Positions 18,195-64,000 are shown, counted from the first letter of the stretch. The stretch: DNA of 64,000 nt from Bacteroidota bacterium (GCA_016124755.1 WGNA01000031.1:1-64000), one strand, 5' to 3'. Numbers and translations: made by a program. Notes: a model not told the origin generated them from the sequence alone.

Positions 18195-18214
18195 TATGTT
18201 TCTCCGGTTAATTA

Positions 18215-27920: not shown

Positions 27921-27992
27921 GCGGTGCTGAAGGGGCTCGAACCCTCAACCTTCCGATAGACAGTCGGATGCGCTACCATTGCGCCACAACAC
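27921..27992 (-). tRNA. tRNA-Asp (anticodon GTC)
   Basis: The reverse complement GGTGTTGTGGCGCAATGGTAGCGCATCCGACTGTCTATCGGAAGGTTGAGGGTTCGAGCCCCTTCAGCACCG folds as a cloverleaf. It has a 7-bp acceptor, D-arm GCGC/GCGC, anticodon loop CTGTCTA (GTC), and T-arm GAGGG-TTCGAGC-CCCTT. Confidence 0.85.
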
Positions 27993-28173
27993 CATATTTT
28001 AAAAAATACTTTCAAAGAACTTCCGGATTGTTTTTCTGTCTTTCCGTTTCGACGTTTCAAAGGTTTTTACTTGACTGCGCAGTCTTTTTGCGCAGAAAAA
28101 AATATTTTTGTTTTTTTAACTAACCTGCTGAAAAACAGGTAGAATTATTCGACAACTATTTTGGGGATTCGTT

Positions 28174-29184: not shown

Positions 29185-29995
29185 TTAATGAAAAGTATGA
29201 AAATAATTAAGAATTACTGACGAATGCCTTTGAAACTACCGTGTAATAACTTGCTGGCGGAACGGTATTGTCAGTATAAATTGGGGAATTGGGGAATTGG
29301 AGAATGGGGAATACTAACGAAATCCGTTTAGACTTTATGTATGCCGAATGAATTGAAGGTGCGGATTTGTCAGCATACTGACGAATGCCGGGAAAGTGAC
29401 TTGAGAATAGTATTGTGACGGAACGACATTGTCAGCATGAATAGGTGATTCGCGGTATTGTGGCTTGAAGCCTCGCGCACGGAAAATTGCAATGGCGCAA
29501 CATCTTGCGCCTGTCATCTCAAGAAACATCTTGCGCCTAACAACCCGACAGAACAATCTCTTTTAGTAACGGTTGCAAAAATCACTTTGATCCAAATCAA
29601 TATTCTTGGGCCAATAACGCTTTAGTACCTCGAACTGCGTTCGGGACAGGATCGGAAATGAGAGCGGAATTGCCGGTAGTTTTACAAGCGGCAAAAAGCG
29701 ACCGGGGCAAGCTCTTTTGCGCGACAGGAAAACAACGGCAATACAAACGAATTGGAGGGATGGCCCGTAAAACGCCCAAAATCCAAGAGGAATTAATTAA
29801 TGAAAAGTATGAAAATAATTAAGAATTAGGGAATATGTGAATTGGAGAATACTGACGAATGCCGGGAAAGTGACTTGAGAAAAGTATTGTAACGGAACGG
29901 CATTGTCAGCATAAATTGAAGTAGGAAGATTGCAATGGCGCAACATCTTGCGCCTGTTATCTCAAGAAACATCTTGCGACTTACTACACTGCACT
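29185..29995. repeat. mosaic intergenic repeat array, family C, cluster 2 (contains an internal ~230-bp direct duplication)
   Basis: GAATTAATTAATGAAAAGTATGAAAATAATTAAGAATTA appears at both 29184 and 29790. CTGACGAATGCCGGGAAAGTGACTTGAGAA...CATTGTCAGCAT appears at 29380 and 29855. ATTGCAATGGCGCAACATCTTGCGCCTGT appears at 29490 and 29930. Confidence 0.75.
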
Positions 29996-46700: not shown

Positions 46701-49244
46701 GGTGACGGAATGGCGTTGGTTTGTGTTGAAAACGGTTCTTCCGTTCTGAAAAAATTCTGGGTGAATACGACTAAAGGAGAAACGCGTTTCACCGTTACGG
46801 CTACCGAAGAAATGTCGCCCAATGCCTATGTGCACGTGAGTTATCTTCAGCCTTACAAACAAACCGACAACGATTTGCCGGGAAGGATGTACGGCATCAT
46901 TCCGGTAATGGTTGAAAATCCCGGATCGCATATTAGTCCGGTGTTAAATATTCCGGATGAAATACGACCGGATGTTGCTCAACGGGTAGTTGTTTCCGAA
47001 TCTAACGGAAACCCCATGACTTACACATTGGCGGTTGTTGATGAAGGTCTTCTCGATCTCACGCATTTTAAAACCCCGGAAGTATGGAAACACTTTAATC
47101 AAAAGCGCGGACTCGGTGTTCGAACCTGGGATTTGTACGATGATGTCTTGGGTGGATATGCCGGCAAATGGAGCAACGTTTTGAGCGTTGGTGGAGATGA
47201 GGAAGGCAGCAATGCAGGAGATGCAACACACAAGGCAAACCGGTTTAAACCTGCCATCCGGTTTATCGGTCCGTTTACGATACCGGCAAACGGAAAAGCT
47301 GTTCACAACATTAAAATGGGTGATTACATCGGAGCGGTTCGGGTAATGGTTGTGGCCAGAAACGGCAATGCGTACGGAACTACCGAAAAGTCGGTGAAGG
47401 TGAAAAAACCATTGATGGTGTTGAACACACTTCCGAGAATTCTAACGCCGGGAGAGAAGATCGTTATTCCGGTTACGGTTTTTAATCTTGATGAAAAAGC
47501 CAAAAAAGTGATGGTGAAAATCAGTGCGAAAGGCAATCTGGAACTAAAGGGCGAAGCGACCAAAACCATTGAATTCAGCAGGGCGGGAGATGAGATAGTA
47601 ACCTTTTTGGCTACGGTTAAAGAAAGTGTTGGATTGGCAGAAGTAATCACATCCGTAACCGACGGAGTGGAAACCGCATCGGCAGAAACCGAGCTCGATG
47701 TTCGGGCGCCGAATCCGGTTGTGACACATGTTGATGAATACGTTATTAAGCCCGGGGAAACACTCGATATAAAAGCAGCCATGCAGGGAATCGACGGCAC
47801 AAACGATGCGTCAATGGAAGTTTCCGGAATGCCACCGATCAACCTGGCGCAGCGGCTTGACGAACTGATTCACTATCCGCACGGATGTGTTGAACAGACC
47901 ACCAGTTCGGTGTTTGCGCAGTTGTTTCTCGACGACTTTATGATATTGAACGAAGAGCGTGTGAACGAGGTTAATCACAATATACGGGCGGCGATAAACC
48001 GGTTGAGATCGTTTCAAACAGGCGATGGCGGACTGGCGTACTGGCCGGGAAATTCGGAAAGCAACGAATGGGGATCGAATTACGCAGGGCATTTTCTCAC
48101 GGCAGCAAAGGCACGTGGTTACGAGGTGAACGAATATTTCTACAACCGCTGGATCGATTACCAGACGAACAAATCGCGTCAATATTCATCCGGAATCTGG
48201 TACGATCAGCACACACAAGCGTACCGGCTTTATACATTGGCATTAGCAGGAAAACCGGAACTCTCGGCCATGAATCGTTTGCGCGAACAGCAAAATCTTT
48301 CAAACGAAGCACGATGGCGACTTGCCGCAGCCTACGTATTAGCCGGACTTCCCGAATCAGCCAAAGCACTTATTCAGGATGTTTCGAAAGTCAGCCGAAG
48401 TTATCAATCACACGGAAATACGTACGGATCCTCGTTGCGGGATCAGGCGATGATTCTCGAAACCATGGTGCTGATGAAAAAAGAAGATGAAGGTTTAAAA
48501 CTGCTAAAAGAAATTTCGTCTTCGCTTTCAAAAGCATATTGGCTGAGCACTCAGGAAACCGCCTATTCACTGATTGCCATCGCGGGTTATCACAAGAAAT
48601 ACAAGGCATCAAACGGCATCAGTTTTACATTCACCGAAAAAGGAAGAGCGCATTCTGTGAAATCCGCGAAGCCATTTGTCCAGATGCAATTGGCGCAAAA
48701 GGCAAAGCGATCGGTTGAAGCAACAACCGTTAGCAACAAAGGCGAAGGCGTTCTGTTTGTGCGGGTAATTCGTGCCGGTGTTCCGTTGCAGGGCGATACG
48801 AATACCATTAGCCGAAACCTCAATTTAAAAATAAAATATGCCGATCTGGAAGGACGGGAACTGGATCCGAAAACGATTCGTCAGGGTACGGAATTCCGCA
48901 TGATCGTGGAAATTAAAAATCCGGGTACGAAAGGATATCAGGCAGACATGGCATTGTCGCAACTGATTCCGGGTGGCTGGGAAATCCGGAACGAAAGAAT
49001 GTTCGGAAACGGAAATGTGCAGAATTACACGTACCGTGATTATAAAGACGATCGCGTTTATACCTATTTTAATCTCGGAGCTGGTTCGCAAACCACGTAT
49101 GAAGTTTTGTTAACCGCAACGTATCAGGGAACATTCTATCAACCGGCGGTGGTTGCTGAGAATATGTATGATCATGAAGTAATTGCTTCTTTGCCGGGCA
49201 GATGGGTTGAGGTAAAACCGGCGGAATATGGGAGAGTTAATTAG
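43749..49244 (+). CDS. bacterial alpha-2-macroglobulin family protein (thioester-containing)
   Basis: 1831 aa with a lipoprotein signal. The thioester motif is HYPHGCVEQTTSSVFAQ (CxEQ). Multiple MG-like repeats. Confidence 0.9.
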   Translation: MVQDMKRSIFLLTSFLITVLACNRSNTYPKYHPDFIHHISAYTAGIIERDAVIRIVLSDSLTQRQIKKLSDLDLMEFSPNIKGKYEMEGNRTVVFIPNEKLPRNMVYQAVFNLGKVKKVDRVLRRFPFRFETPKQSVNMEVGALQAYSDYDPKYRHIEGVLTINDNEEIDALKGCISADLDGKNLPVKVFSADHNKQFIFRIDSILRTEKNRNLTIRLNGKSIGASEVQTEIVEVHGLGEFTLTNVLIQNEPDQKIEAVFSDAISVMQSIDGMIWLDEDADINYEINGNVVRIFPKNRLTGSHEIKFSKSIQNNMGYNLKNETIREIYFDQTKPKLRLVGNGTIVPDAKGVVFPFEAMALKAVDVWIYQVYEKNIPQFLQVNDLEESGQLKRVGKLIHTSKVDLSQNKKVAENEWTRYTLNLGKFINQEPGAIYRVMIGFRKSYTFFQCEENEDDYQTDADPLYYNYYSNSEYYLREYEPCNSSFYYSGAIARNILASDLGLMVKQGSDQKFHVFTTDLITAKPKAGVKVELFDYQNTRMASAVSDENGMAVFSSKEEDPYLLVGSSGKQKGYLKLGNGRSNSTSKFDVEGINDEKGIDGIIYTERGVWRPGDSMYVMFILQDKLKNLPSNVPVNFTLTDPMGKNLIQTVKNQSTGGIYDFRTATPADAITGTYRAKVEVGGNTFYRSLPVETVQPNRLKIAMDVSDSALQLKGKDTIYLKTRWLHGAPSPGLAYQVNARIRSVTTRFKGFEKYSFDDGTKSFNQMERVAAEGKLDEEGETHFSPNWSFNENAPGRLKVDFIAKVFEKSGNFSTDFSEFEISPYASYVGIGSPSSLQEDGSMETDKSHIFPLAHLKANGKPANDGKLQVKIYRLDWSWWWESDRNLSSYVQSHSIIPMMDSLVKTANGKGKVSFRIPYPNWGQFLMVAKDPVSGHTTSKVFYIDWPYWRRVNRNQTDDASIIQLSTGKSHYNVGQNMQITIPATGDGMALVCVENGSSVLKKFWVNTTKGETRFTVTATEEMSPNAYVHVSYLQPYKQTDNDLPGRMYGIIPVMVENPGSHISPVLNIPDEIRPDVAQRVVVSESNGNPMTYTLAVVDEGLLDLTHFKTPEVWKHFNQKRGLGVRTWDLYDDVLGGYAGKWSNVLSVGGDEEGSNAGDATHKANRFKPAIRFIGPFTIPANGKAVHNIKMGDYIGAVRVMVVARNGNAYGTTEKSVKVKKPLMVLNTLPRILTPGEKIVIPVTVFNLDEKAKKVMVKISAKGNLELKGEATKTIEFSRAGDEIVTFLATVKESVGLAEVITSVTDGVETASAETELDVRAPNPVVTHVDEYVIKPGETLDIKAAMQGIDGTNDASMEVSGMPPINLAQRLDELIHYPHGCVEQTTSSVFAQLFLDDFMILNEERVNEVNHNIRAAINRLRSFQTGDGGLAYWPGNSESNEWGSNYAGHFLTAAKARGYEVNEYFYNRWIDYQTNKSRQYSSGIWYDQHTQAYRLYTLALAGKPELSAMNRLREQQNLSNEARWRLAAAYVLAGLPESAKALIQDVSKVSRSYQSHGNTYGSSLRDQAMILETMVLMKKEDEGLKLLKEISSSLSKAYWLSTQETAYSLIAIAGYHKKYKASNGISFTFTEKGRAHSVKSAKPFVQMQLAQKAKRSVEATTVSNKGEGVLFVRVIRAGVPLQGDTNTISRNLNLKIKYADLEGRELDPKTIRQGTEFRMIVEIKNPGTKGYQADMALSQLIPGGWEIRNERMFGNGNVQNYTYRDYKDDRVYTYFNLGAGSQTTYEVLLTATYQGTFYQPAVVAENMYDHEVIASLPGRWVEVKPAEYGRVN

Positions 49245-50130
49245 AATTAAAAGAATGAAATGAATTAAAAGAATTAAGAATTGGGGAATTGGAGAATTGG
49301 AGAATTGGGGAATGTTCACTACGGAGCGTCATCCCACCGACGAACTCGAGGATATCTGGTGTAGGAATAAAATCCGAGTCGAGTTGTCAGTGTAAACATT
49401 CTTACAACGTTCCGGGTACTCATCTTACCTACGAATGCCGATGAGTAATTTAACAAAGCAATATCTCGCACGGCATTGTCAGCATTAATTGGAGAATGTT
49501 CACTACGGAGCGTTATCTCGGACACCGTTCCGGGATCTCATCTTACCGACGAATGCCGAAGAGAAATTTTAAGAGAGCAACATTTTCGCACCGCATAGTC
49601 TGCATGAATTAAACTTGTTTCAGGATCTTATTCCAACAAACAGTTAAAAGAATATTTTTCATGAACACTCAAAACCCGCGGATTCAAATGGAAACGTTTG
49701 ATGAAGCGGGCTTTTTGTTAACTAATTAGAATGAAAAAAATTACTGACGAATGCCTGATGAGTGAATTGTGAAGAGCATTATTGGGGAACGGCATTGTCA
49801 GCATAAATTGAAGAAGAGAATGTTCACCACGGAGCGTCATCCCACCGACGAACTCGAGGATATCTGGTGTAGGAATAAAATCCGAGTCGAGTTGTCAGTG
49901 TAAACTTTCTGACGCCGTTCCGGGATCTCATCTTACAGACAATTGCCGAAGAGAAATTTTAACAGAGCAACAATTTCGCAAGGCATGGTCTGCATAAATT
50001 GGAGATTTGGAGAATGTTCACCACGGAGCGTCATCCCACTGACGAACTTGGGGTTATTTTTATAGGAATAAAACTAGAGATGAGTTGTAAGGATAAACGT
50101 TCTAACTGCATTCCGCGATCTTTTTTAAAT
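49245..50130. repeat. mosaic intergenic repeat array, family C, cluster 3
   Basis: GGGGAAT/TGGAGAAT microsatellite. Four copies of the 85-bp TGTTCAC(C/T)ACGGAGCGTCATCCCAC(C/T)GACGAACT... module. CATTGTCAGCAT and CGAATGCCGA modules. Confidence 0.75.
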
Positions 50131-51759: not shown

Positions 51760-51945
51760 TGTTTCCCCGATTTTCTACCTTAAGACAAATTCCCGCCGGG
51801 GCTATCCGGCCTTTCCGACTGCCCACCCACGCGATCCTATTCATGTTGTGGGTTCCGCTTCGCAAAATTCATTTTGTTCTTTTTAATACTAAAATTGAAG
51901 TGATCCGACAAGTTAGTGCAATAAAGCGGAGAAGCATTTAATTTA
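51760..51945. repeat. family B repeat element, truncated copy B3 (inverted orientation)
   Basis: Matches the GC-rich half of B4/B5 (TTTCCCCGATTTTCTACC...CGCTTCGCA...). Confidence 0.7.
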
Positions 51946-51963
51946 ATGCAGACTGTAAATCAC

Positions 51964-52632
51964 CTAAAGATATCTTTCCTCCTTTTCCCGTTTGCGCACT
52001 TCAACTGCCGGAACACCGCTCATTAAAGCATAATCGCCACAATTTTCTAAAACGAGAGAACCTTCGCTTATAACCGAATAATTTCCAATGGTAATTCCAC
52101 GCTTTATAGTTGAACCGATGAGAACTGCCGAAAGCGTTCCGATGGTAACGCAGGCTCCGGTTGTTACGCCGGGTGCCAGACTGGAATAATCTGCCATTTC
52201 ACTTTCGTGGTCGATACTCGATTTAGTATTGAGAATCGTGAAATTTCCAAGGGTAGTTTCACTATTAATTACAACTCCTGCCATTACTGCGGAACCGTGA
52301 CCAATTTGCACATCCCGGGCAATTTGTGCCGAAGGATGAATAGCAGTTGCGAACTGAGCTTCGGGAACCAAAGCAGTAATTTTATCTTTTACTTTTTGTC
52401 GGATTCCGTTATCGCCAATCGCAATAAAAAGAAAACAACCGGGATGTTCTTGAAGTAATTCGGGAAGATCGGCTTCCTTTCCCAACACCTTATAACCGGC
52501 CGTTTCTTCGCCCGATTCACGAAACGAATCCACAAATCCGACAATTTCGTATTGACCAGATTTCTCAAAAATATCCACGATCACTTTTGCATGTCCGGAT
52601 GAACCGATGATAAGTACTTTTTGTGCGGGCAT
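51964..52632 (-). CDS. NeuD/PglB-family sugar O-acetyltransferase (hexapeptide-repeat)
   Basis: N-terminal Rossmann-like KVLIIGSSGHAKVIVDIF. C-terminal left-handed beta-helix hexapeptide repeats. 222 aa. Confidence 0.7.
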   Translation of the reverse strand: MPAQKVLIIGSSGHAKVIVDIFEKSGQYEIVGFVDSFRESGEETAGYKVLGKEADLPELLQEHPGCFLFIAIGDNGIRQKVKDKITALVPEAQFATAIHPSAQIARDVQIGHGSAVMAGVVINSETTLGNFTILNTKSSIDHESEMADYSSLAPGVTTGACVTIGTLSAVLIGSTIKRGITIGNYSVISEGSLVLENCGDYALMSGVPAVEVRKREKEERYL

Positions 52633-52718
52633 ATTGGAGGAAATGTTTTTAATATTACTTCACGAATATGATTTTTTCTATAAATCTGAAGCAAAGAAAA
52701 TTTAACGCAAGAACGGAT

Positions 52719-53141
52719 TTAATTTGACACCTGCTTCCTCACAAAATCAATATAAGCCAATTTCTTAAAATCGAACCAATGCTGGCGATACGGGGATGAG
52801 TCAATCAGCGTTTTAAAATGCCGGAACGGATTTTTGTTGGAAAGAATGCGGTATATTTTATCCCGGAAATAGTTGTCGGTTATCTGATCTGCAAAATTCT
52901 GCATGACCTCAAACGCTTCACTTGATTGCATTCCTTCAATGATGTGGTAATTATCCCGGTCTTTTTCAATTTTGTCGAGAACATCCTGCCACGGTAATTC
53001 TTCATCTGCAGAGAAAAAAAATTCGTTTTCTTCTGTTTTTGGAAGCGATTCAATTTCACCGGTAATGCGGTGAATATAACAAACCATTCCGGTTTCGAGC
53101 AGTTCGGCGATTTCTTCTATTTGTTTTTCGGTTAATGACAT
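52719..53141 (-). CDS. hypothetical protein
   Basis: 140 aa. The acidic N-terminus suggests an all-alpha fold. No motifs recognised. Confidence 0.45.
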   Translation of the reverse strand: MSLTEKQIEEIAELLETGMVCYIHRITGEIESLPKTEENEFFFSADEELPWQDVLDKIEKDRDNYHIIEGMQSSEAFEVMQNFADQITDNYFRDKIYRILSNKNPFRHFKTLIDSSPYRQHWFDFKKLAYIDFVRKQVSN

Positions 53142-53197
53142 TGTTCAATTCTGATTTTTAAAAAATGCTTGTCCGTTTTGATACGCCGAGATTGTTC

Positions 53198-53505
53198 TAC
53201 AATCTCTTTTCTTCTTACTTTTTTCTTGATAAAAAAGTAAGCAAAAAATCAAGTCGGAAAGAAAGCTGCCCAAGCGCCCTTTATCATTTGTTGAAAATCT
53301 GGGGAAAGAGGTGTCAAGCACTTTCCCGATTTTCTACCAAATGACAAATTCCCGCCGGGGCTATCCCGCCTTTCCGACGGCCCACCCACGCGTTTCTATT
53401 CTTGTTTTAGGATCCGCTTCGCACAATGCATTTTGTTCTTTCTACTGCTATAATGGAAGTGATCCACAAATTGGTGCTATTGCAATGAAGCGGTGAAACA
53501 TCTTA
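53198..53505. repeat. family B repeat element, copy B4 (inverted orientation)
   Basis: Carries the hairpin CTTACTTTTTTCTTGATAAAAAAGTAAG and the GC-rich core. Confidence 0.8.
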
Positions 53506-53589
53506 AAAAATTTAAAAATAAGAAAAATGATTTACACCCGGGAACACATTTTTGGCGAGCATAAAGTATCAAAACTGGTTGGTCTCTGT

Positions 53590-54165
53590 GTTAAGTGCTT
53601 AATTGATCATCCGGTTGTGTTAGATGTGCAATGAATTTGTATCTTTCATCCGGGGAGGGGTGGCTATAGCCCGGCATTTCCCATTCAGAAATAAGCATTT
53701 AATTCAAGCGGTTAATTTGTTTCGAAACCACAAACTGATTAACTTTCATCTGAGGGGTGGCTGTTGCCCAGCCGCAATAACTCTCCGAAATAGATTCCAT
53801 AACATAAAGTGCGAGGGTGGTAGGCCGAATGAAGTTCTATTCAACTCAATAATTCATTCGGTAAGAACCGCACGTTCAAGTGCCAACTCTGCGAACTCAT
53901 CCTCATCTCAACAAAAGAAGTGAGCTGTTATTACTCAAACATTTAAATTACGCATTCCTCATCTCCTGCGCCTCTGCGTGAAACAAGCCGAATTTTGGGG
54001 ATACTTACAGTATAGATAAAGCACGTTGTTGTCCTCTGCGAACTCTGCGTGAAAAATGGAACGCATTCAAAAAAGTAAGTGTTTAAAATTGTCTGGATTT
54101 TTGTTTAGTTATTTCAATACATCGAACTTTCATCCGGGGAGGGGCGGCTATAGCCCACAGTCAAC
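53590..54165. repeat. mosaic intergenic repeat array, family A, cluster 3 (inverted orientation)
   Basis: Three reverse-complement cores CTTTCATCCGGGGAGGGGTGGCTATAGCC plus CTGCGTGAA modules. The terminal segment is the reverse complement of the 6280-6305 end of cluster 1. Confidence 0.75.
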
Positions 54166-54183
54166 AACGAACCCACAATTGAC

Positions 54184-54624
54184 TCACCTCGCATATTTCT
54201 TTCGATTCTCTTCGCTAAAGATTATCGGAATACTCCAGCTCCTCGTTACAAACTTACCACGCCGGTAATACACATCCCATTCGGGAATTAATTGTACAAC
54301 CCGAAGCGCTACCTGATTCAACAGGGAATCATCGCAGCCGACTTTTATCCGGATGCTATCCGGTTTCGGTGAACTGCCCGATTGCAAAGCCACCCAAACC
54401 TTTTTGGATGCGGAATGCAAATCCGGGATGTTCTGCCAACGCATTCGGGAATACAAAAAACGGAACAGACTATCCGGATTCTCCGTAAACACGGATCTGA
54501 ATGATCTGGAATTATCAAACGTTAATTGTTGTTTTAAAATCCCCGATTCAAAAGTGAATTCTAATTCCTTTTCGTAAATCGATTCGTACTCGCTGTGCAC
54601 ATAAAGAATCTGTTTTCCGTCCAT
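54184..54624 (-). CDS. hypothetical protein (the start is placed at an internal Met; the longer ORF's N-terminus lies inside repeat B5)
   Basis: The ORF 54184..54873 has its first 83 codons inside repeat B5, so I restarted it at MDGKQILYVHSEY. Confidence 0.35.
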   Translation of the reverse strand: MDGKQILYVHSEYESIYEKELEFTFESGILKQQLTFDNSRSFRSVFTENPDSLFRFLYSRMRWQNIPDLHSASKKVWVALQSGSSPKPDSIRIKVGCDDSLLNQVALRVVQLIPEWDVYYRRGKFVTRSWSIPIIFSEENRKKYAR

Positions 54625-54747
54625 TGCCAGAATTTTCCCGGAAAACCAGTTAGCAGAAACAATGGATGTCCCGAACTCTTTCTGCAGATCAAAATAAATG
54701 CTTGTCTGTATGCATACACCAAGATTGTAAATTGGTTTGGGGGTCGA

Positions 54748-55040
54748 TGTACAATCTCTTTTCTTCTCACTTTTTTCTTGATAAAAAAGTAAGCAAAAAA
54801 TCAAGTCGGAAAGAAAGCTGCCCAAGCTCCCTTTATCATTTGTTGAAAATCTGGTGAAAGAAGTGTCAAGCACTTTCCCGATTTTCTACCAAATGACAAA
54901 TTCCCTCCGGGGCTATCCCGCCTTTCCGACGGCCCACCCACGCGATCCTAGTCTTGTTTTGGGATCCGCTTCGCACATTTCATTTTACTAAAATGGAAGC
55001 GATACACAAGTTGGTGTAAAAAAGCGGAGAAACATTTCAA
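54748..55040. repeat. family B repeat element, copy B5 (inverted orientation)
   Basis: Near-identical to B4. Confidence 0.8.
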
Positions 55041-55349
55041 AATATGTTCGGTTGTGGTAATCGCAACTGCGTTGAATGTGGGTTAGAAACAAACTGTCGT
55101 TCACCAATTTCCAGGTGGCCAGATAACCGCGTGAACAATCGGTAGAGGTCCAGGGTAGCGTGTCGCCGTTAATTGATCTGTCTGATTTATACCGGAAATA
55201 CGATTCCAACGGATTGGAATGCATTATAAACGTATCGCCCTTATAAATGAGACGGTCGCCGGTCTGTTCGGTTGCGAATGTGAGGGCGGGAAAAAGTAGG
55301 AGAAAGTAGTTGGAGTAATTTCTTCAAATAGGGGGATTTTGGTTCGCAT

Positions 55350-56105
55350 TTATTTATCTTTTACACATCTTATTGATGCTCCCAACTGCTTCAATCCATT
55401 TCCCTTGCTGATTTCAGAACTGCTAAAATACAAGCTGCGAACGTAAGCTCCCAAAAGACCTTCTTCTTTTACTTTGGTAGAAGTCCAGAAGTGGGCAAAT
55501 TTTCCTACTGAGCCAAAATTTCCAGATAATCCAGCGCGCACAGAACCAGGGAGTGCACAAAATCCGGATCCATTTGTTGCACCAATATTTGGCTGATACC
55601 AATACTTGAGTGTATTTTCTTTTAAAAGACCTCCTATGTTTATGCCGGAGTAGCCCATTTTTGTTGTGTCAACTTCCGGGTCCAAATATTTGCATAATTG
55701 ATTCCAGTCTACATCAGTAGCTACGTGCCAACCTTTTGGTGCAATTTGCCGCTCATCTTCAATCACAAACCAATTATATAGGTAGCCATAAGTAGTAATT
55801 AAGGATGTATCATTATTGATTATGGTCAAAGCACCATGTTCTAACCTACTCCATACATCTCCGTCATTAATTATTGGAATGTTGTCGCCATTGCGGTATC
55901 TCGTTACCCTTAAGTTTTCACACATCCAGATTTGGGAACCTATTTTAATTGTCTTATAAATATTACCGTCAATATCTCTAATTTTGGATTGGTACTTATT
56001 TAAATTATTGGGTTTGTTTTCAATTGAATTTATTTTATCTGAGTGAGATGTGCAACCAGAGGTGATCATGTATATAGATAATATTATGAGTGAAAATATT
56101 TTCAT
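55350..56105 (-). CDS. FISUMP-domain (Fibrobacter succinogenes major paralogous domain) lipoprotein
   Basis: Lipobox ITSGCTS. Motifs YGYLYNW, GWHVATDVDW and GASIRCVKD. Confidence 0.7.
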   Translation of the reverse strand: MKIFSLIILSIYMITSGCTSHSDKINSIENKPNNLNKYQSKIRDIDGNIYKTIKIGSQIWMCENLRVTRYRNGDNIPIINDGDVWSRLEHGALTIINNDTSLITTYGYLYNWFVIEDERQIAPKGWHVATDVDWNQLCKYLDPEVDTTKMGYSGINIGGLLKENTLKYWYQPNIGATNGSGFCALPGSVRAGLSGNFGSVGKFAHFWTSTKVKEEGLLGAYVRSLYFSSSEISKGNGLKQLGASIRCVKDK

Positions 56106-56218
56106 TTCATAAAGTCTAACGGTTTCGAGCTATACACAGGTAGGGATTTTATTACTTACCTGTCCTACGAAACATGAACCCCCTAATTGCGTACAGGTGA
56201 TGTTATGCAATCGCCCTT

Positions 56219-58153
56219 TTATATTTTGTTTGTCAAGTCTTTAAAGTAACCATAATCTTTGTCAACTAAAATTCGCCTGTCAAGATAGCAATTGAATTTT
56301 TCGCAAGACGTTTCGGGTAACAATGTACAACTGAAACAAGCGGAAAGATTCAAATTAGCGACTCCTTGCCCGTGTGTATGGTAACAAATGGGGTCTGTCG
56401 CACAGTCAATAGCTCGAATCATTGCTGATTCAATTAGTTTTCCTATTCTGTCGTCATCGCAAATTGATGTTATTCCACCGTAACTTCCCTCTGAACCTGC
56501 AATTGTGTAAATTAAAACTCCGTTCATTTCGGGGTTTTCGTCAATGTACAATCGTTCTTGAATTGATGTTGATGGGTAACCGCACAAATACTCCAATTCT
56601 TTAATAATTAAATGCGAAAATGTATGAATGAGAACATATTTTGGATTTAAGTCAAAGTCCTCATTAAAAGTCGATTCAAACTGTTGTTTGTTTCCGATTA
56701 AAATTGAAATCCGTTCTTGTATTTTGGGGTTGTTTTTAATCCATTCATCCAAGGCTTTATTGTCAAATTCAAAAAACACACCTTCGCCAAAACTTTCAAT
56801 CGCTGGTAAATATTTTGTTGTTTTACCATAAGTAGAAGTGAATTTTTTTATGATACTTTCAATTGTGATTTTTTCAGGGTCTTCATCTTCTAAAATTGCA
56901 TTTGATGCAATTGGCTCTTGTCTTGTGTACGAAGTCTGAACAGACGAAATTTTTATTTTATCCATTTTGAAAATGGACTTTATCAAATCGTTTTGAAAAA
57001 AAGAACTGTCTATTTTATTGAAAATCAATTTATCTTCAATTCTATCGCTATCTTTTTCAGTAATGAATTTATATTCGTCAAACCGATATTCATTTTCAGT
57101 TTTTGCAATTTCAAGGTTTTTTTCGCTGAAATTGTTATCAATCAGTTTCTGAATGGTTTCGGAATCTATGTCTATGTTTTTATAGCGTTTTAGGTTTCTC
57201 GAAATTGTTTGGGCATTACTTCCGTCATTGTATTCTTCTTTAACCAAGTTAACTGAAAACTCATTTAGCTCATCATTGGCAGGAATGAAAATACTCGACA
57301 AAATATTTGGGTAATAAACGCTATTACTTGAACGAATAACAGGTTTAAACAAAATGTCTGTTTCCTTTGTGTTTGGAATTAAATCTTGAATTTTTACCCT
57401 TAGATTGAACAAACCAGAAAGTGTTGTAAAATTTACTTGTTCTCCGTTTTTTCTTTTCGCAATTATCCAAATACCTTTCAAATCGTCCATTTTATCGGAT
57501 GTTTTGTACTCAAAAATCACATCATCCGGAACTTGAATATTTGCGAGCGTGATAATTTCTTCTTCATTTGGGGTTTGGGTTGATTCTGTATTGTCCTCTT
57601 TTTTTCTGTTTCTGAGTAATGACCATTTATCCCAAGGTATATCGGCAATTTCTCCATTTGGCGAGGTTAGGACAAAACGAACTTGTTCCAAATCATAAAA
57701 CTTTCTTTTTCTATCTCTGTTTTTAACGTAGCAACTGTAACACTTGGGTGGATAAAAATTGTCTTTATGGTACGAATCAACATTATTTTCCCAATTGATT
57801 TTCCACTTGTCAATTCTGTCAAAACGATTACAGTTGTTGCAGTAAAACCATTCAGGGAAATATTTTGCTGATAAAAAAGCAAATGGATTTTCGGGCTTAA
57901 AACCTTGTTTTAAATCGTTAACAGGGATTTTTATCAAGTGTTCTAACTCTTGAAAATACTTGCTCAATCGGTTTTTGAATCTTTTGTCAATGACAAAATT
58001 GTGTTCTTCAAATTGTCCGTTTGTGGTTTGAAAAAAAGGCCACTCGTTGAAGTTGTCAATCAATATTGAACCGTCTCTTGTTTCTATAATAGAACCAACA
58101 CCACCATACGAACTAATGGCTTTTCTTGTTTGTATTTGCTCAAATTGTCCCAT
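56219..58153 (-). CDS. DUF1998-like Cys-rich protein (DrmB / DruE C-terminal-module-like)
   Basis: 644 aa. N-terminal CNNCNRF...CYSC. The C-terminal block LIHTFSHLIIKELEYLCGYPSTSIQERLYI...GVLIYTIAGSEGSYGG...CATDPIC...ACFSCTL...SCEKFNC fits my memory of DUF1998 (the conserved HT.SH, LYD-GG and four-Cys elements). The start ATG shares 1 nt with the helicase stop. Confidence 0.6.
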   Translation of the reverse strand: MGQFEQIQTRKAISSYGGVGSIIETRDGSILIDNFNEWPFFQTTNGQFEEHNFVIDKRFKNRLSKYFQELEHLIKIPVNDLKQGFKPENPFAFLSAKYFPEWFYCNNCNRFDRIDKWKINWENNVDSYHKDNFYPPKCYSCYVKNRDRKRKFYDLEQVRFVLTSPNGEIADIPWDKWSLLRNRKKEDNTESTQTPNEEEIITLANIQVPDDVIFEYKTSDKMDDLKGIWIIAKRKNGEQVNFTTLSGLFNLRVKIQDLIPNTKETDILFKPVIRSSNSVYYPNILSSIFIPANDELNEFSVNLVKEEYNDGSNAQTISRNLKRYKNIDIDSETIQKLIDNNFSEKNLEIAKTENEYRFDEYKFITEKDSDRIEDKLIFNKIDSSFFQNDLIKSIFKMDKIKISSVQTSYTRQEPIASNAILEDEDPEKITIESIIKKFTSTYGKTTKYLPAIESFGEGVFFEFDNKALDEWIKNNPKIQERISILIGNKQQFESTFNEDFDLNPKYVLIHTFSHLIIKELEYLCGYPSTSIQERLYIDENPEMNGVLIYTIAGSEGSYGGITSICDDDRIGKLIESAMIRAIDCATDPICYHTHGQGVANLNLSACFSCTLLPETSCEKFNCYLDRRILVDKDYGYFKDLTNKI

Positions 58154-61100
58154 TATCTGTTTATTATTTTTACAATACTATTCGTATCTATTTCTCTCAT
58201 TGACATCATCAAACTCCAATCGTCTAAATCGGACGTTTTTTTAATCAAAATTTTATAAGTCAAATCGCCCTCTTTGGTCGTCCATTTTTCGGCTAAAACC
58301 TTCAATTTGTCCAACGCATAATCCAATTGCTTTTTGTTTTTGATTCTCTCTGAAATGAAAGTTTTTAGTTCCTCATAATTGCCTGTGAAGTCTTTGGCTC
58401 TTTTGTCGAGATACAAACCTTGCTTGTGTCGAACAAAACAAACTAACAAACTCGCCAAAACTTTATCCAAAGCAATTTCGGTAAATGGGGTAACACTTAA
58501 CGGCTCTACGTATTTGTAATATGCGTTATTGAAAGGAACGTAATTTTCAAAATACGACTTGTCTCTTGAACGGTTAGCATCTAACAAATTGATAACAATT
58601 CCTTTGTCTTTTCTTCCAACGCGACTTGACGCTTGAATGTATTCGGCAACATTTTTTGGTTGTCCATTCATCAACATTACATTCAGGCGTTCAATATCAA
58701 TACCAACCGAAAACATATTTGAAGCCAAAACCAAATCAATTGTATTTTGAACAAAAGTCCATCCGTCTTTAGTAATTAGGCTGAACTTCATTTCGAGTTC
58801 GTCCAATAGCCTCTTGATAGAGTTACTTTCAATTCTACTTGTCAGTTCTTTTGTTCTTCCTGCAAGCCCAAAATAGTTAAAGCCATAAATTTGTTTATTA
58901 AATTGGTAGCGGTTGTGTAAGAGTTTTAAGAAATCCGAAATTTCCGCAGGAACCTTGTTGTAAACCTTGCCAACATCACGCAAACTGTTGTAAAATGAAA
59001 CAATTGTCCAAAAATTATTTTCTCGGCTTATTGCTTCTTCTTGCGATAAATTCTCCTTTACTCTGTAATATTTGAACAACTCAATACGAGCCAAAAGCAA
59101 ATTTCCTAAAATCCGTATTTGAGAATTTAAAGCCGTTTTCCCTGTTGGCATAAAACCAATATGCTTCCTTTTACTTTCGGTTGAAACGTAAGAAAAGAAG
59201 TTGTCGTCATACGTTACGCCCATTGGTGGAAATATGCTTAATGTTCTATTTCCGTAAAGCATTGCAACTTGTTGTTCCGTATTTCGGGTTGTTGCTGTTG
59301 AAGTAATGATTTTAGGTTTTCTTTTTCCCTTTGTTGAAAGCATTTCAACAATAGATTCGTATAAACCAGTGATTGAACCCAAAGGACCACTCAATAAGTG
59401 CAACTCATCTTGAATAATTAAATCAGGTGGCAGTTTGTTTTCTTCCAAAGAGTTGAAAAGATGATGCCCTTCTTGTCTATGCGAAAGCATTGCGAATTTA
59501 TCTACTGTTGCAAAAAGTAATGTTGGTGGATTTTGATAGATTTTATCATCCACGAAATAAATTGGCAATTCTGTATTAAATGCACAATCAGGATTTAAGC
59601 AATTGGTTGAAAATGCTTTGTCGGTTGCTCTGTAACCCAAATCAAATTTTCCAGATTGATTTTGTGTAACCAAATTACAGCCACACCAAGAACAATTTGT
59701 AATAGGAAATGTATTTGCTTTACGATAATCGCCTGTTCTTTTGTTATTGAGTTTTGTGATTTCATCAAATACTTTTTTGAAAATTGTTCGAGCATCCGAA
59801 TATGAGTTTGGTGTTGTAGATGCTCCAACCCACATTCCAATTGAAACTTCATCATCGCCAAAAAAGTAATCATCATCTGAATTAAAGCTTCTCCTTAAAA
59901 AATCCAATGACAAAATAAGTTTTGTTGCTCGTTCAAATTGTTGGGCTGTCAACAATCGCAATGTATATCGCATAATTACAGAAACCCCGTCCGCATCTTT
60001 TCCGTGCAATATTCTCCGGCTAATTATTGTGAAAGCCGTAATTGCCAAATACGCTTCTGTTTTTCCGCCACCTGTTGGAAACCAAAGTAAATCAACAACA
60101 TTATTTCTGTCATCTGAATCTTCTTTGATTATTGATTCAATATTCAAAAGGAAGAATGCCAATTGAAACGGTCTGTAATTTGGCTTGAACGAATGATTTT
60201 TAAAAAAGTCTAAATCATTGTAATTGAAATTTTTGTCAATTTCAGATAGCTCAATTCCTTTTTTTCCAAACAAATCTTTGTTAGAGATTAGCATTTGAAT
60301 ATACATTGCCGTGTTTGCCAACAAGAAAGATTTGAAAGCTGTTTCGTTGTTATTTAGAAAATCAATGTTTTTGATTAGTCTTTCGAATGTTTTATTTTGC
60401 TTTTCTAAAATGGTGCATAACGGTTTTTTGTAATTGTCTTCCGCAGTTGTCTTTTCTTGTTCGGCTATCCAATTCTTGTACTCTTTGGCAAATAGTTTTA
60501 ACTTTTGAATGATTGTTGATTTGTCAAAATCAGTCCAAATTGAAAGTTTTTTTAACTCGGTTATATCTTTCAAATTTGCTGGGAAAGTGTTTTTAAAAGC
60601 ATTACTGTAATTCTTAATATCAACTTCAGGTAAAAATGTGGTTTTTAATTCCGTTGGATTTTTGTTGTTATTCCAAGTAACCGCACAACCATGTCCAATG
60701 GCAAAAGAGTTTTCATTTCTGTATTGAAAATTGATTAGGTTTAGTTCTTCGTCAAACGGATTTGTTTCGGAAATTTGCTTGTATGGCAAAAAAGTAACAC
60801 CCGAAACGGCAATTTCGCCCTGAAAAATTGCTTTTGTGTTTAAAAGTTCATTGCCAAACGAAAATTTATTTTTCGGGTGGTTCAATCTGTTTGCCAATAG
60901 AATTTTTATGAATTTGCCGTATGGCGTTTCATAAATTTTCTTGTAGTAGCAAGTAATAATAGAATTGTCCTCTTGGTTTTGGTCTAACGGATATTCCTTT
61001 GATTCATCAGCGTTTATTCCCTTTAGATTTAACTCAACAATTACGGGTTCTCTTTTGACTCTTTTCCAAAGTCGTTGTCCTAATATAAGTTCTCCTTTTT

Positions 61101-61758
61101 TGTATCCAACACTATCAATTAATTCTTGTTGCTGTTCGTTTTCCTTAAATCGGCTTCTATAATTCCGAACATTCAAACCGCCCTTTGCAAATTCTTCTTT
61201 GTTTAAGGACAATAGTCCATTTTCATAGTTAAAATATTTGCTGACTGAATTGTATGGGTTTTCTGAAAACTTTTTAAACTCCTCTTCTGAAATTTCTATT
61301 ACTGCATCTGTTGGTTCTATTTGAATGTACTTGGCATAATTGAAAGTTACGGTTAAGGTTTCGGCTTCTTTTGGAACGCAAAAAGTCAAACCGAAATTTG
61401 TCGGGAAATATTGATTGGCTTCCGAATATTCTTTTTCAGGTTCAACATTTTTGCTTTTATCTACATCTTCATCAAATTCATTCTCGTCCTTGTCTGCAAA
61501 TTCCAAATTTGTGTCAAGGTTATCATCTTCAATCTCTGCATTAGCATTGGCATCATCATTTTTCCCGATACTGTCTTTCTTTGCATCTTCAACATCACGT
61601 TCGGGAAATAAAATACCTGAATAATATCTACTCAATGGATAATCGGAAATGATTTCATTTTCAGAATCGGAAACAAAAACATCAGAATTGGGGCCAATCA
61701 AATTATTTTTGATTGTATCCCGAAATATCAATCTTGGCTCGTTTACGTAATTACTCAT
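58153..61758 (-). CDS. SF2 DExH-type helicase with an N-terminal unknown domain and a Cys4 insertion (DrmA-like)
   Basis: 1201 aa. Q-motif PFQLAFF, motif I WFPTGGGKTEAYL, motif II IIQDELHLLSG, motif III TSTAT, motif VI QASSRVGRKDKG. Zn-ribbon-like CSWCGC...CLNPDC. About 30% GC. Confidence 0.8.
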   Translation of the reverse strand: MSNYVNEPRLIFRDTIKNNLIGPNSDVFVSDSENEIISDYPLSRYYSGILFPERDVEDAKKDSIGKNDDANANAEIEDDNLDTNLEFADKDENEFDEDVDKSKNVEPEKEYSEANQYFPTNFGLTFCVPKEAETLTVTFNYAKYIQIEPTDAVIEISEEEFKKFSENPYNSVSKYFNYENGLLSLNKEEFAKGGLNVRNYRSRFKENEQQQELIDSVGYKKGELILGQRLWKRVKREPVIVELNLKGINADESKEYPLDQNQEDNSIITCYYKKIYETPYGKFIKILLANRLNHPKNKFSFGNELLNTKAIFQGEIAVSGVTFLPYKQISETNPFDEELNLINFQYRNENSFAIGHGCAVTWNNNKNPTELKTTFLPEVDIKNYSNAFKNTFPANLKDITELKKLSIWTDFDKSTIIQKLKLFAKEYKNWIAEQEKTTAEDNYKKPLCTILEKQNKTFERLIKNIDFLNNNETAFKSFLLANTAMYIQMLISNKDLFGKKGIELSEIDKNFNYNDLDFFKNHSFKPNYRPFQLAFFLLNIESIIKEDSDDRNNVVDLLWFPTGGGKTEAYLAITAFTIISRRILHGKDADGVSVIMRYTLRLLTAQQFERATKLILSLDFLRRSFNSDDDYFFGDDEVSIGMWVGASTTPNSYSDARTIFKKVFDEITKLNNKRTGDYRKANTFPITNCSWCGCNLVTQNQSGKFDLGYRATDKAFSTNCLNPDCAFNTELPIYFVDDKIYQNPPTLLFATVDKFAMLSHRQEGHHLFNSLEENKLPPDLIIQDELHLLSGPLGSITGLYESIVEMLSTKGKRKPKIITSTATTRNTEQQVAMLYGNRTLSIFPPMGVTYDDNFFSYVSTESKRKHIGFMPTGKTALNSQIRILGNLLLARIELFKYYRVKENLSQEEAISRENNFWTIVSFYNSLRDVGKVYNKVPAEISDFLKLLHNRYQFNKQIYGFNYFGLAGRTKELTSRIESNSIKRLLDELEMKFSLITKDGWTFVQNTIDLVLASNMFSVGIDIERLNVMLMNGQPKNVAEYIQASSRVGRKDKGIVINLLDANRSRDKSYFENYVPFNNAYYKYVEPLSVTPFTEIALDKVLASLLVCFVRHKQGLYLDKRAKDFTGNYEELKTFISERIKNKKQLDYALDKLKVLAEKWTTKEGDLTYKILIKKTSDLDDWSLMMSMREIDTNSIVKIINR

Positions 61759-64000
61759 CTACCAAAGTCTTTTTAATTATTGTCTTTTCCTTTATTGTTG
61801 CCGTTAGTTTCTCTAAAATACCCTCTGGAAGTTTGTTTAGTGAATCGCTTTTTTCTTCTTTGTTAGAAGCAACATAATCTAACAAGTCATTTCCCAATAT
61901 TTTTCCAGCCTGTTGCCTTATGGAATGGTCTTTTTTGGAATATATTTTGAATTTATCAAACTCTGTTACAATCAAGTCATTTTCACGATTATTCGTTAAG
62001 CAAAAATCACGAATGACTTCCATTGTTTTCACTCTTGGAAATCGTGTTATGCAATTCGTATCTAAATAATTTCGGAATGTGTTGAAATGAATTTTGTACG
62101 AAGTGAAAAGGGAATCGTATAGATTTTCGGCAGTTTTAAACTGAATAGATAAGTCTTTCAATGTCTGTTTCCAACTGTCGGAATATTTGTCAAACGAATC
62201 CAATAAATTCTCTGTGTCAAAGATTTTCAGGATTTTTCTAAATTCTTCTTTGCTGTTGTTTTGGTAAAACCTAACTGTTGCGTTATTGTACAATTCTCCA
62301 ATGGTTGTTTTGATTTGTTCACCATTTTCAATCAAGAAAACACCTTTTGTGGAATCGAATTTCTCAATCGTTCCATCACTAAATTGAACTTCATAAACAG
62401 CACTTTCTTTTGGCAATTCAAGAGCTTCATAAGGATTGTTTTTGAAGTTTTCATTATTTAAGTCAAAATAAAAAATATCATCCAACTCTCGTTTTTTTAT
62501 TTCTGTTGGGTGAGAAAAATCCGTTTTGAAAAATATTAATCTATCCTTGTGGTTTAATTTAGTTTTTTCTTGACTTTGGTATGCCTGTTCAACATTGTCA
62601 AAAGAAATTTCATCTAAATTTTCATAGCATAAAACTTCGCATTTTCCCTTTATGGCTTTGATTTTCGTATAGAGTTCCATATTGTTTAAATAGGGAACAA
62701 GTGCCAATTTGTTTTTGGAGTTTTGGTCATCATTCAACCATTTGTCCAAATAGAGCTTTGAGTTGTCAATCCGTTTCTCGCTTATCAATTGGATGTTGTG
62801 TATTTTTTCGTTCTTAATTTGAACAGAGACAGCATCATAGTTTTTCTTTTCTACGATTACGTATATTGGTTTAGGATTGATTTCTTTTGCTTTTTGCTTA
62901 ATGTAATCCCATTTCAAATTTTCACTTCCCAATGTGCTTGAAATTTTTGAAAACAAATCGAAAATGAGGTCTGTATAACCTTTGATTGTGCCAGGATTAT
63001 AAATGTCTTTTTCGTAAAAATGATTGTTTAGTTCATCTGAAAAAGCTTCGCTTTGGAAATAATGATTTAGTCGGTCTAAATACTCTTGAAAAATCCCTCT
63101 TGACAGATTAGTGTTTACCAAAATTACCCTCAAAAAGAAATTGGTGTACTTTAACACAAAGGTAAGATTTACCTTGCTTTCGTCTTTTATGTTTTGAATA
63201 ACTTCCGTTAGTTCTGAAATCAAGGAATAAAGATTGTCATTTTTTAAACAAACTTTTTTTGTGTCGTTTGGGATTTCGTTATTGGCAATTTTTACTTCAT
63301 CATTAGACCATAACCACTCTAAAAATTGATTTTCAGAGCATGGCTTTTCTGTTCCAATTATAATAATGTTTTTGTACTTGTTTCTGTATTTTTCTTGTAG
63401 AATGAAATCAAAATCATCACGATACTTGGAATCACCAATAACTATTATTTCGTCAAATGTTTGATTTTTATCTAATAGATAGTTTTGGGCTGTTTCAAAA
63501 TTATTACAGCATTCTATCATATAGTTGAAAAATGGTAAGTCATTCTTTATTTTGCCATTCCTATTTGTATATCTAATTGGTAAATGTTTACTTTCTTTGA
63601 AAAATCTTTGGTCTGCTATGACCAAAGTATTATTCTTAAAATCTGTGATGAATGGAAAATCCTTACCAAAAACATTTTTTAAATAATTTATATAGTTGTC
63701 AATATTTTTGGCCGTGTTTCGACCATTGGCTAGATCTGGATTTATTTTGTAAAACTTATGACCGCTAATTGAAATTTCCACTCCTTTTTCATTTCTTTTT
63801 GGAAATTGGTATTTCAGTCTTAATCCTCTAACAGTCTTACCAATTACTTTATATACACGTTTTTTTGTTTCAGAATATATTAAATCTCCTGTTTCAAGAG
63901 AAGGTTTCTTTTTCTCAAGGTTGAAAAAGTTTTGAAAAAGTTTTATTAGAACAATTGAATTAAAAATTGAAGCAAAAAAGTTTTCTCGGTATACGTCTTC
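61751..64000 (-). CDS. large hypothetical protein (≥750 aa; the 5' end lies beyond the window); first gene of the AT-rich helicase/DUF1998 operon
   Basis: The reading frame stays open from 61751 through 64000, so the ORF-track Met at 63781 is internal. No recognisable motifs. There is an 8-nt ATGAGTAA overlap with the helicase gene. Confidence 0.55.
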   Translation of the reverse strand, partial: EDVYRENFFASIFNSIVLIKLFQNFFNLEKKKPSLETGDLIYSETKKRVYKVIGKTVRGLRLKYQFPKRNEKGVEISISGHKFYKINPDLANGRNTAKNIDNYINYLKNVFGKDFPFITDFKNNTLVIADQRFFKESKHLPIRYTNRNGKIKNDLPFFNYMIECCNNFETAQNYLLDKNQTFDEIIVIGDSKYRDDFDFILQEKYRNKYKNIIIIGTEKPCSENQFLEWLWSNDEVKIANNEIPNDTKKVCLKNDNLYSLISELTEVIQNIKDESKVNLTFVLKYTNFFLRVILVNTNLSRGIFQEYLDRLNHYFQSEAFSDELNNHFYEKDIYNPGTIKGYTDLIFDLFSKISSTLGSENLKWDYIKQKAKEINPKPIYVIVEKKNYDAVSVQIKNEKIHNIQLISEKRIDNSKLYLDKWLNDDQNSKNKLALVPYLNNMELYTKIKAIKGKCEVLCYENLDEISFDNVEQAYQSQEKTKLNHKDRLIFFKTDFSHPTEIKKRELDDIFYFDLNNENFKNNPYEALELPKESAVYEVQFSDGTIEKFDSTKGVFLIENGEQIKTTIGELYNNATVRFYQNNSKEEFRKILKIFDTENLLDSFDKYSDSWKQTLKDLSIQFKTAENLYDSLFTSYKIHFNTFRNYLDTNCITRFPRVKTMEVIRDFCLTNNRENDLIVTEFDKFKIYSKKDHSIRQQAGKILGNDLLDYVASNKEEKSDSLNKLPEGILEKLTATIKEKTIIKKTLVDE

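Follow-up and report, generated by a model that had tools for sequence, protein, structure and literature searches.

Class 2 DISARM is reportedly organized as DrmE-DrmA-DrmB-DrmC-DrmMII (Ofir et al., 2018), and two questions about DISARM systems stand open, namely how host DNA is spared and what finally stops the phage. We analyzed a 64,000-nucleotide stretch of DNA from a Bacteroidota bacterium (GCA_016124755.1, WGNA01000031.1:1-64000; hereafter the window), the right end of which carries an AT-rich island of three genes. Two of these encode DrmA and DrmB, and the third encodes a large upstream protein, here called X, that we relate to DrmE. On balance, we favor the reading that the island is a self-contained drmE-like/drmA/drmB module, i.e., the core of a class-2-type DISARM without the C5 methyltransferase and DrmC, and that it has spread as an integron-type cassette.

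DrmAB senses DNA structure. The Serratia complex binds single-stranded DNA (ssDNA) carrying a 5' overhang, and a loop in DrmA keeps it auto-inhibited; it requires ATPase activity but not DrmC (PMC9142583). DrmC is dispensable and host phospholipase D (PLD) nucleases may substitute for it (Bravo et al., 2022; PMC9142583). The DISARM, MrfA/Lhr, and Druantia families have a YprA-type helicase and a DUF1998 module in common, and the same study points to "many uncharacterized DISARM-like" classes and to DISARM-like cassettes adjoining McrBC (Bell et al., PMC12458937). Druantia type III has been reported to sense ssDNA. With respect to mobility, integrons have been detected in Bacteroidota (PMC9668308), and integron cassettes encode defense systems (BRiCs; Kieffer et al., 10.1101/2024.07.02.601719; Darracq et al., 10.1101/2024.07.02.601686). 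The integron defense cassettes reported so far are described as small and streamlined, with the vast majority (73%) in Vibrio (10.1101/2024.07.02.601686).

The island encodes DrmA and DrmB

The island consists of three co-directional open reading frames on the minus strand (Table 1). As the initial annotation had described, stop and start codons overlap at both junctions (TAATG at 58153; ATGAGTAA at 61751-61758), and the three genes are translationally coupled as read from these overlaps.

The middle gene encodes a protein of 1201 amino acids that we assign, from profile and structure-database matches, to DrmA of the "short" type typical of DrmE-containing (class-2-like) loci. PADLOC DrmA models matched it at 4.6e-171, and the sole PDB match at E <= 1e-5 was Serratia DrmA (7S9V_A, 2.5e-120) and not MrfA, in agreement with the earlier call of a DrmA-like helicase and at odds with a housekeeping Lhr/MrfA-type enzyme. 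Models of DruE, DpdJ, and RecQ-type helicases gave marginal matches only. Every motif previously quoted for a complete superfamily 2 (SF2) helicase set is present (PFQLAFF, FPTGGGKTEAYL, QDELHLL, TSTAT, QASSRVGRKDKG), together with the Cys cluster inserted in this protein. ATPase motifs I and II are intact, namely Walker A GGGKT (residue 563) and DELH (residue 784), and residues 51-115 form an acidic stretch (38% D+E).

The 644-residue product of the downstream gene is DrmB. It scored 306.5 bits with the NCBIfam model DrmB_fam, above the cut-off of 240, and it matched the PADLOC DrmB model (1.8e-59) and the PDB chain of DrmB (7S9V_B, 1.1e-35). It also contains the motifs HTFSH and GSYGG, C-terminal Cys motifs, and N-terminal CxxC pairs, as expected of the DUF1998-like protein that had been proposed for this gene. 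The match to the Pfam family MZB/DUF1998 itself exists at 23.4 bits, slightly below the gathering score of 24.2.

Protein X is predicted to be a distant DrmE homologue

The frame of the first gene is open as far as base 64000, with its stop codon beginning at 61751; an automated call of 676 aa from a GTG merely reflects the first start codon inside the window edge. A public 13.9-kb contig (L001) has no mismatches to the window in the 9080 nt of positions 54921-64000 and reaches 4.8 kb further. In this contig the full gene encodes 813 aa and begins 192 nt past the window, in line with the earlier estimate of at least 750 residues.

No model in Pfam, PADLOC, or NCBIfam matched X, even at E <= 10. 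Its family is compact, comprising 208 close relatives of about 812-820 aa, nearly all from Bacteroidota, and only 122 representatives among 1.84 billion clusters at 50% identity. PADLOC recognized none of ten remote family members as DrmE, and one of them had a chance-level Csa3 match only.

Profile comparisons link X with DrmE. Firmicutes relatives of the window DrmA have a protein with the Pfam domain PF24957 (DrmE_C) directly upstream; in the Paenibacillus locus L035, the gene order is DrmE-DrmA-DrmB-C5 methylase. When the X profile was compared with this DrmE_C-bearing Paenibacillus DrmE by hhalign, the two aligned over nearly their full length (99.3%, E 2.3e-20, 691 columns). X also aligned with an 801-aa protein from the Lactiplantibacillus plantarum plasmid pMK02 (L034; 97.2%, E 4.4e-11), where that protein is found with a dcm-type methylase, DrmA, and DrmB. 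A tblastn search of plasmids with this L. plantarum DrmE-like protein retrieved only itself. The best-scoring comparison was with a protein from a Haliscomenobacter plasmid (100%, E 4e-111), which has the same bare three-gene layout, with DrmA 43% identical and X about 19% identical to the window proteins. These alignments point to X being a distant DrmE homologue outside the current family model. From the matches of X to DrmE proteins, the X-DrmA-DrmB series would represent the DrmE-DrmA-DrmB core of a class-2-type DISARM. The initial annotation had suggested an analogue of DrmE or DruH on the basis of position; the DrmE side was borne out, as homology rather than position only, and no DruH match was found.

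We also predicted the structure of X with AlphaFold2 (AF2), using 70 sequences; an earlier run with 15 close sequences reached a predicted local distance difference test score (pLDDT) of 64. The confident model contains a pair of RecA-like domains of the SF2-helicase type (residues ~185-320 and ~440-525) separated by a helical insertion and flanked by β-rich and helical domains. X has no Walker A motif, and its sole GKT (residue 118) lies outside both RecA-like domains. P205, E299, K427, F718, and P719 are invariant across the family. X can be read as helicase-shaped and probably without ATPase activity. An alternative PD-(D/E)xK reading (D254/E299-x-K301) was dropped because the fold places these residues in a RecA-like domain, at positions like those of helicase motifs II and III.

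The three genes form a conserved unit that lacks a methylase and a nuclease

The island occupies an AT-rich block, with a GC content of 0.27-0.35 (~30%) compared with 0.38-0.49 to its left and 0.47 past its right end, so that the ~7.8-kb compositional island described initially is real. It is bounded on the left by a Fib_succ_major lipoprotein gene at 55350-56105, the lipoprotein gene recognized earlier at the end of the block. On the right, contig L001 shows a 470-nt spacer upstream of the X gene, followed by a divergent HemN-like radical-SAM gene and carotenoid genes. Given the lipoprotein gene on one side and the spacer and HemN-like gene on the other, the island comprises exactly three genes.

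The cassette encodes neither a methyltransferase nor a PLD nuclease, and the adjoining DNA that could be read (about 1.2 kb downstream and 4.6 kb upstream) likewise has none, extending past the window edge the earlier remark that none was in view. PADLOC searches with the 40 other open reading frames of the window returned no methylase, no Drm match, and no DrmC. Across 23 related loci, neither DrmC nor a methylase recurs beside the cassette. No Pfam family occurs more than three times among the 120 flanking genes of these loci, clustering shows only the three cassette genes to be recurrent, and the one N6_Mtase among these genes is part of a type I restriction-modification system. The conserved unit is thus the triplet and no more. 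Of the DISARM features, DrmA and DrmB are thus present in this locus, and DrmC and a dedicated methyltransferase are not. Among the options raised at first, a minimal DISARM is the one favored by the DrmA and DrmB profile matches and by the homology of X to DrmE.

Other arrangements were seen among more distant relatives. In Clostridium botulinum (L037, 6381-17672), the genes for McrB and McrC come immediately after DrmE-DrmA-DrmB, which fits the DISARM-like/McrBC link of Bell et al. Two plasmids, from Bacillus toyonensis (L031, 8218-16172) and Bacillus sp. (L033, 4584-12526), carry a DrmA-DrmB variant without DrmE. The pair is accompanied by two hypothetical proteins of ~327 and ~508 aa, which lie downstream of it in one plasmid but upstream in the second; one of these proteins has a faint CARF-like match.

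The module is under purifying selection and widely transferred

A scan that admitted one genome per species found 28 loci. Gene order was the same in 27; of these, 22 carry the complete triplet over most of its length, and contig ends truncate the other five. The hosts of the syntenic loci span at least five Bacteroidota classes and include Dyadobacter, Prolixibacteraceae, Empedobacter, Myroides, Flavobacterium, Pedobacter, Tenacibaculum, Saprospiraceae, Draconibacterium, and Capnocytophaga, among others. Identity to the window copy is 65-95% for DrmA and DrmB and 49-84% for X, and DrmA and DrmB reach 93-95% in Dyadobacter, Prolixibacteraceae, and Allomuricauda loci. The GC content of the cassette is 25-32% whatever that of the host flanks (26-51%), and pairwise ratios of non-synonymous to synonymous substitution rates (dN/dS) are 0.04-0.14 for all three genes. 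One locus (L014) has an apparent frameshift in drmB.

The strict synteny, low dN/dS, constant cassette GC, and high identities together indicate purifying selection and recent wide horizontal transfer. The horizontal acquisition proposed initially is therefore strongly supported by the contrast between cassette and flank GC and by the identity across hosts. Rather than being fixed at one position at core-genome GC, the locus has unrelated neighbors and a GC content of 25-32%.

Two further observations were made in this comparison. Within locus pairs (L001/L003/L004/L026), drmA and drmB show only about half the dS of the DrmE-like gene (L001-L003: 0.44 and 0.34 vs 0.83), as if the first gene had been exchanged by recombination or had accumulated mutations differently. 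In addition, a 4.8-kb contig (L005, CAZLZF010000045.1) with an X 78% identical is binned in a metagenome-assembled genome of 'Candidatus Woesearchaeota archaeon'; this most likely reflects a binning artefact and not an archaeal host.

Relatives of the module are bounded as probable integron-type cassettes

Nucleotide homology between loci begins at GTTATGC(A/G)AC, 49 nt upstream of the X start codon, and the part common to the loci ends at GCATAAC, about 18 nt past the drmB stop codon. The 5' end G/TTATGC (the slash marks the crossover) and the 3' GCATAAC are perfect reverse complements of each other, the relationship that the R' and R'' boxes of a single attC site should show. GTTATGC opens and GCATAAC closes the unit in six loci (L007, L008, L014, L027, L029, and L039). 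Compared with the consensus G/TTRRRY, the middle base of the cassette 5' end departs from RRR/YYY.

The clearest context is the Draconibacterium chromosome OY781971.1 (596200-618638; L025, 1-22439), where 14 co-oriented attC-like sites occur in 22 kb and the triplet lies between two of them. Most of these sites are 130-134 nt long and have the form GCTAAC...ACCGTTAGC. The other intervals contain one to four small co-oriented open reading frames, including AbiH-like, HNH, and DUF6602 genes and several without a Pfam match, so that L025 looks like a defense-rich chromosomal integron in Bacteroidota. The consensus fold of ten of its sites has the attC layout, in which an unpaired spacer separates the R''/R' stem from the L''/L' stem; 14 of the 21 base pairs show compensatory changes. 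A covariance model built from the L025 sites (R1), which Draconibacterium sites dominate, detected a full-length site directly 3' of drmB in a Saprospiraceae locus (L027, E 1e-9) and further sites in L012 and L003. The site in L014 forms a long hairpin (z -2.8) that none of 200 shuffled sequences matched in folding.

Since the 5' G/TTATGC complements the unit's own R'' GCATAAC, the arrangement that integron recombination yields, and the unit fills an array slot in L025, we regard it as an integron-type cassette; on the sequences of its relatives, the module appears to spread among Bacteroidota as a cassette of about 8.1 kb. Many public contigs with X are 8.0-8.5 kb long, and one (L039) is the cassette alone, breaking off at the cassette ends. 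These short contigs showed no terminal overlaps in a circularity check, and the predicted empty insertion site was not found among metagenome contigs. Bacteroidota-type tyrosine integrases are encoded near the module in four loci (L022-L024 and L026), and larger islands may therefore also carry it.

The window cassette is 8121 bp long, from 56120 to window-equivalent 64240, and lies between the hemN-like and lipoprotein genes, with the ends GTTATGA and GCATAAC. A site of 95 nt lies 3' of drmB, with R'' GCATAAC at 56208-56202 and R' GTTAGAC at 56120-56114, so that GCATAAC and ACCGTTAGAC are properly placed. The 3' crossover G/TT would fall between 56120 and 56119, 14 nt before the lipoprotein start codon. 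Sequence comparison places this site at the same position as the L027 site. It was the best R1 match in 24 kb on both strands, at full length and on the right strand, and we estimate the chance of the top match landing at that spot at roughly 0.002. R1 detected no further attC-like site in the 64-kb window, in which the cassette is solitary.

Proposed mode of action and alternative explanations

The following scheme extends the Serratia findings by homology. The overlapping stop and start codons would allow co-translation of the three proteins. DrmA and DrmB would form an ATP-driven helicase/DUF1998 heterodimer, as in the solved Serratia DrmAB. Auto-inhibition would keep this complex off host DNA, and it would load on invader DNA that exposes single-stranded ends (by analogy with Bravo et al., 2022); the acidic loop of DrmA (residues 51-115) is the candidate inhibitory loop. 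The DrmE-like pseudo-helicase may be a partner without motor function, engaged in DNA binding or in the regulation of DrmAB. The module being nuclease-free, infection might be stopped by a direct block of replication or by a host nuclease, and DNA structure, as opposed to methylation, would tell self from non-self. DrmE-DrmA-DrmB would then be an autonomous, methylation-independent immune module with structure-only recognition, packaged as a ~8.1-kb three-gene integron cassette circulating across Bacteroidota classes, a proposal that we advance tentatively.

Several points weigh against our interpretation of the island as a DISARM core spread as an integron-type cassette. X is missed by the Pfam family DrmE_C and by all PADLOC models, and its link to DrmE comes from profile-profile comparison only. 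The window DrmA scored 787 bits with the NCBIfam model DISARM_DrmAS, short of the equivalog cut-off of 950, and therefore belongs to a divergent subfamily. Phage protection by the module and its harmlessness without a methylase are predictions only. On the side of mobility, no integron integrase gene (intI) occurs within the DNA stretches examined, L025 included, and no recognizable attC site lies 3' of drmB in L009, L011, L015, L016, L018, L021-L024, or L026. The L004 and L014 sites escaped R1 even when its filters were disabled, and thermodynamic folding against shuffled sequences gave no significant fold for the L004 site. The site in the window scores weakly (9.9 bits, E 0.34) and folds no better than shuffled sequence (z -0.17). 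Because of this weak score and fold, we treat it as a remnant and not as a proven active attC, and we conclude that the window copy is a solitary intergenic cassette with a decayed attC. Integron integrases have been reported to insert cassettes outside att sites (10.1101/2022.09.11.507474), and the window cassette may have been inserted in this way. Lastly, genome inspection covered 64 kb plus 4.8 kb, and a methylase or nuclease may exist elsewhere in the host genome.

This last point also bears on the main rival explanation, namely that the module is not autonomous and is a "mix-and-match" DISARM core, in the sense proposed by Bravo et al. for DrmC, that uses a methyltransferase and/or nuclease encoded elsewhere in the host genome. 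Its canonical relatives in Paenibacillus and on pMK02 carry a C5 methylase beside DrmE-DrmA-DrmB, the C. botulinum relative has McrBC, and the substitution of host PLD nucleases for DrmC suggested by Bravo et al. (PMC9142583) fits such dependence. However, the hosts belong to at least five classes, the neighborhoods of the cassette are unrelated, and no partner gene recurs; a specific partner encoded elsewhere would have to exist in every one of them, and a cognate methylase is unlikely to be already present in every recipient of a mobile cassette. We thus consider dependence on a partner rather unlikely, and we hold it decidedly improbable that the island is a decaying, non-functional class 2 remnant that has lost drmMII and drmC. 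Two components that define DISARM are indeed missing and the window attC is degenerate, but 22 loci keep all three reading frames over most of their length together with their coupling (the apparent drmB frameshift in L014 aside), and dN/dS is as low as 0.04-0.14. Nor does pseudogenization fit the retention of the same architecture where X is only about 19% identical.

With regard to the boundaries, the terminal inverted repeats might be the ends of a non-autonomous transposon mobilized in trans by a transposase, and not attC halves. The ends are imperfect inverted repeats of 10-14 nt (GTTATGCGAC...GTCGCATAAC), most loci are solitary with no array, and no integrase gene was seen nearby. Yet no target-site duplication is visible at any junction, and the repeat cores are canonical attC boxes (AAC...GTT). 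The L025 unit fills one slot in an array of 14 sites with attC architecture and covariation, and L027 and L014 have full-length structured sites 3' of drmB; the transposon explanation is, in our judgment, slightly less credible still than decay. Least probable is that the genes encode a housekeeping MrfA/Lhr-like repair helicase pair or a split Druantia type III system (DruE halves plus DruH). The YprA-type helicase and DUF1998 are common to all of these families (PMC12458937), and weak DruE and DpdJ matches were obtained, but the DrmA and DrmB models outscore those of DruE and DpdJ by over 100 orders of magnitude. In the PDB, only DrmA and DrmB matched and MrfA did not, X has no DruH match and is homologous to DrmE, and the locus is mobile, AT-rich, and outside the core genome. 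The split-DruE option of the initial annotation was specifically rejected: DruE models match only residues 1002-1116, within the Helicase_C stretch, at 7.8e-7, there is no DruH match, and helicase and DUF1998 are on separate proteins.

Other features of the window

Table 1. Coordinates of the island genes and of the adjoining attC-like site, numbered from the first base of the window.
Feature	Position	Strand	Remark
DrmE-like protein X, 3' 749 codons of 813 aa	61751..64000	(-)	start at window-equivalent 64192
DrmA, 1201-aa SF2 helicase	58153..61758	(-)	start overlaps X stop by 8 nt
DrmB, 644 aa, DUF1998/MZB zinc-binding module	56219..58153	(-)	ATG overlaps DrmA stop (TAATG)
Degenerate attC-like site	56114..56208	(-)	directly 3' of drmB stop codon

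The initial annotation had placed repeat elements, termed B4/A3/B5, at the left border of the island. Repeats are indeed present at 51763-55017, but more than 1 kb separates them from the island, with the lipoprotein gene in between, and they do not form the boundary. Considered as attC or boundary elements, they proved unrelated to the island; they do not resemble attC, and no Rfam family matched. They are three copies, spaced 1.55 kb apart, of a family of ~100-360 nt that contains GCGAAGCGGATCCCAAAACAAGAATAGGATCGCGTGGGTGGGCCGTCGGAAAGGCGGGATAGCCCC (51763-51906, 53198-53465, and 54750-55017), and which also occurs at 6422-6519 and 18210-18307; these three copies are probably the B4/A3/B5 elements.

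Other repeats are found further left. A 45-nt element (GGGCTATAGCCACCCCTCCCCGGATGAAAGTTCGGGATC...) is present in 12 copies in two clusters 10 kb apart (5274-6266 and 15647-16714), inside longer repeats of 100-250 nt. Tandem 8-nt units (AATTGGGG/AATTGGAG and complement) occur at 26885-27384, 29176-29317, and 49243-49317, and are adjoined by ~70-nt repeats at 29211-29916 and 49738-49808. The window also contains a tRNA gene at 27922-27993 (-) and, in its native-GC part, an open reading frame of 1831 aa at 43749-49244 (+).

Comparison with known systems

We found no description of a bare mobile DrmE-DrmA-DrmB cassette in Bacteroidota in the literature examined. The gene identities will not surprise a specialist; a methylase- and nuclease-free triplet under strong selection and its packaging in 8 kb between attC sites are somewhat unexpected. 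Such a triplet, selected in many unrelated hosts, would offer a minimal system in which both open DISARM questions are directly testable. DrmE would also gain a structural identity, with the model of X suggesting a helicase-shaped protein without a P-loop.

The closest described system is class 2 DISARM, as in the Paenibacillus and L. plantarum pMK02 loci. The cassette shares with it the order of DrmE-like, DrmA, and DrmB genes, a "short" DrmA, a DrmB with a DUF1998/MZB module, and an X apparently homologous to DrmE over nearly its full length. In contrast, it has neither a C5 methyltransferase nor a PLD nuclease, it is an apparently attC-bounded cassette in Bacteroidota, its X is beyond the reach of the DrmE_C and PADLOC models, and its DrmA is under the equivalog cut-off. 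Compared with the class 1 DrmAB of Serratia sp. SCBI (PDB 7S9V/7S9W; PMC9142583), DrmA and DrmB are homologous and ATPase motifs I and II are intact, but class 1 systems additionally contain the SNF2 protein DrmD, an N6-adenine methylase, and DrmC. The N-terminus of class 1 DrmA is EVE-like, and the protein has a defined trigger loop, whereas the N-terminus of the cassette DrmA differs and the acidic loop 51-115 is the sole hint of an equivalent.

The cassette resembles the DISARM-like cassettes beside McrBC (Bell et al., 2024, 2025; C. botulinum L037) in being a triplet without an adjacent dedicated methylase. However, in those loci the McrBC type IV restriction module supplies a nuclease, while the Bacteroidota cassette is without any partner. 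It is like Druantia type III (DruE plus DruH) in combining, without a methylase, a YprA-type helicase, DUF1998, and one large partner; unlike it, the cassette is split and nuclease-free with a DrmE-like partner, whereas DruE is one fused protein with C-terminal PLD nuclease domains.

Finally, the cassette resembles the integron defense cassettes in that a defense system, here a putative one, lies between attC sites, and in L025 cassettes for AbiH-like and HNH proteins are part of the array as well. It differs from them in comprising three genes over about 8.1-8.4 kb and in its occurrence in Bacteroidota, a phylum whose integrons have received little study. If this reading is correct, the ~8.1-kb cassette is far larger than the streamlined defense cassettes described so far, and it would extend the picture of integrons as stores of defense genes to a large multi-gene cassette in Bacteroidota.

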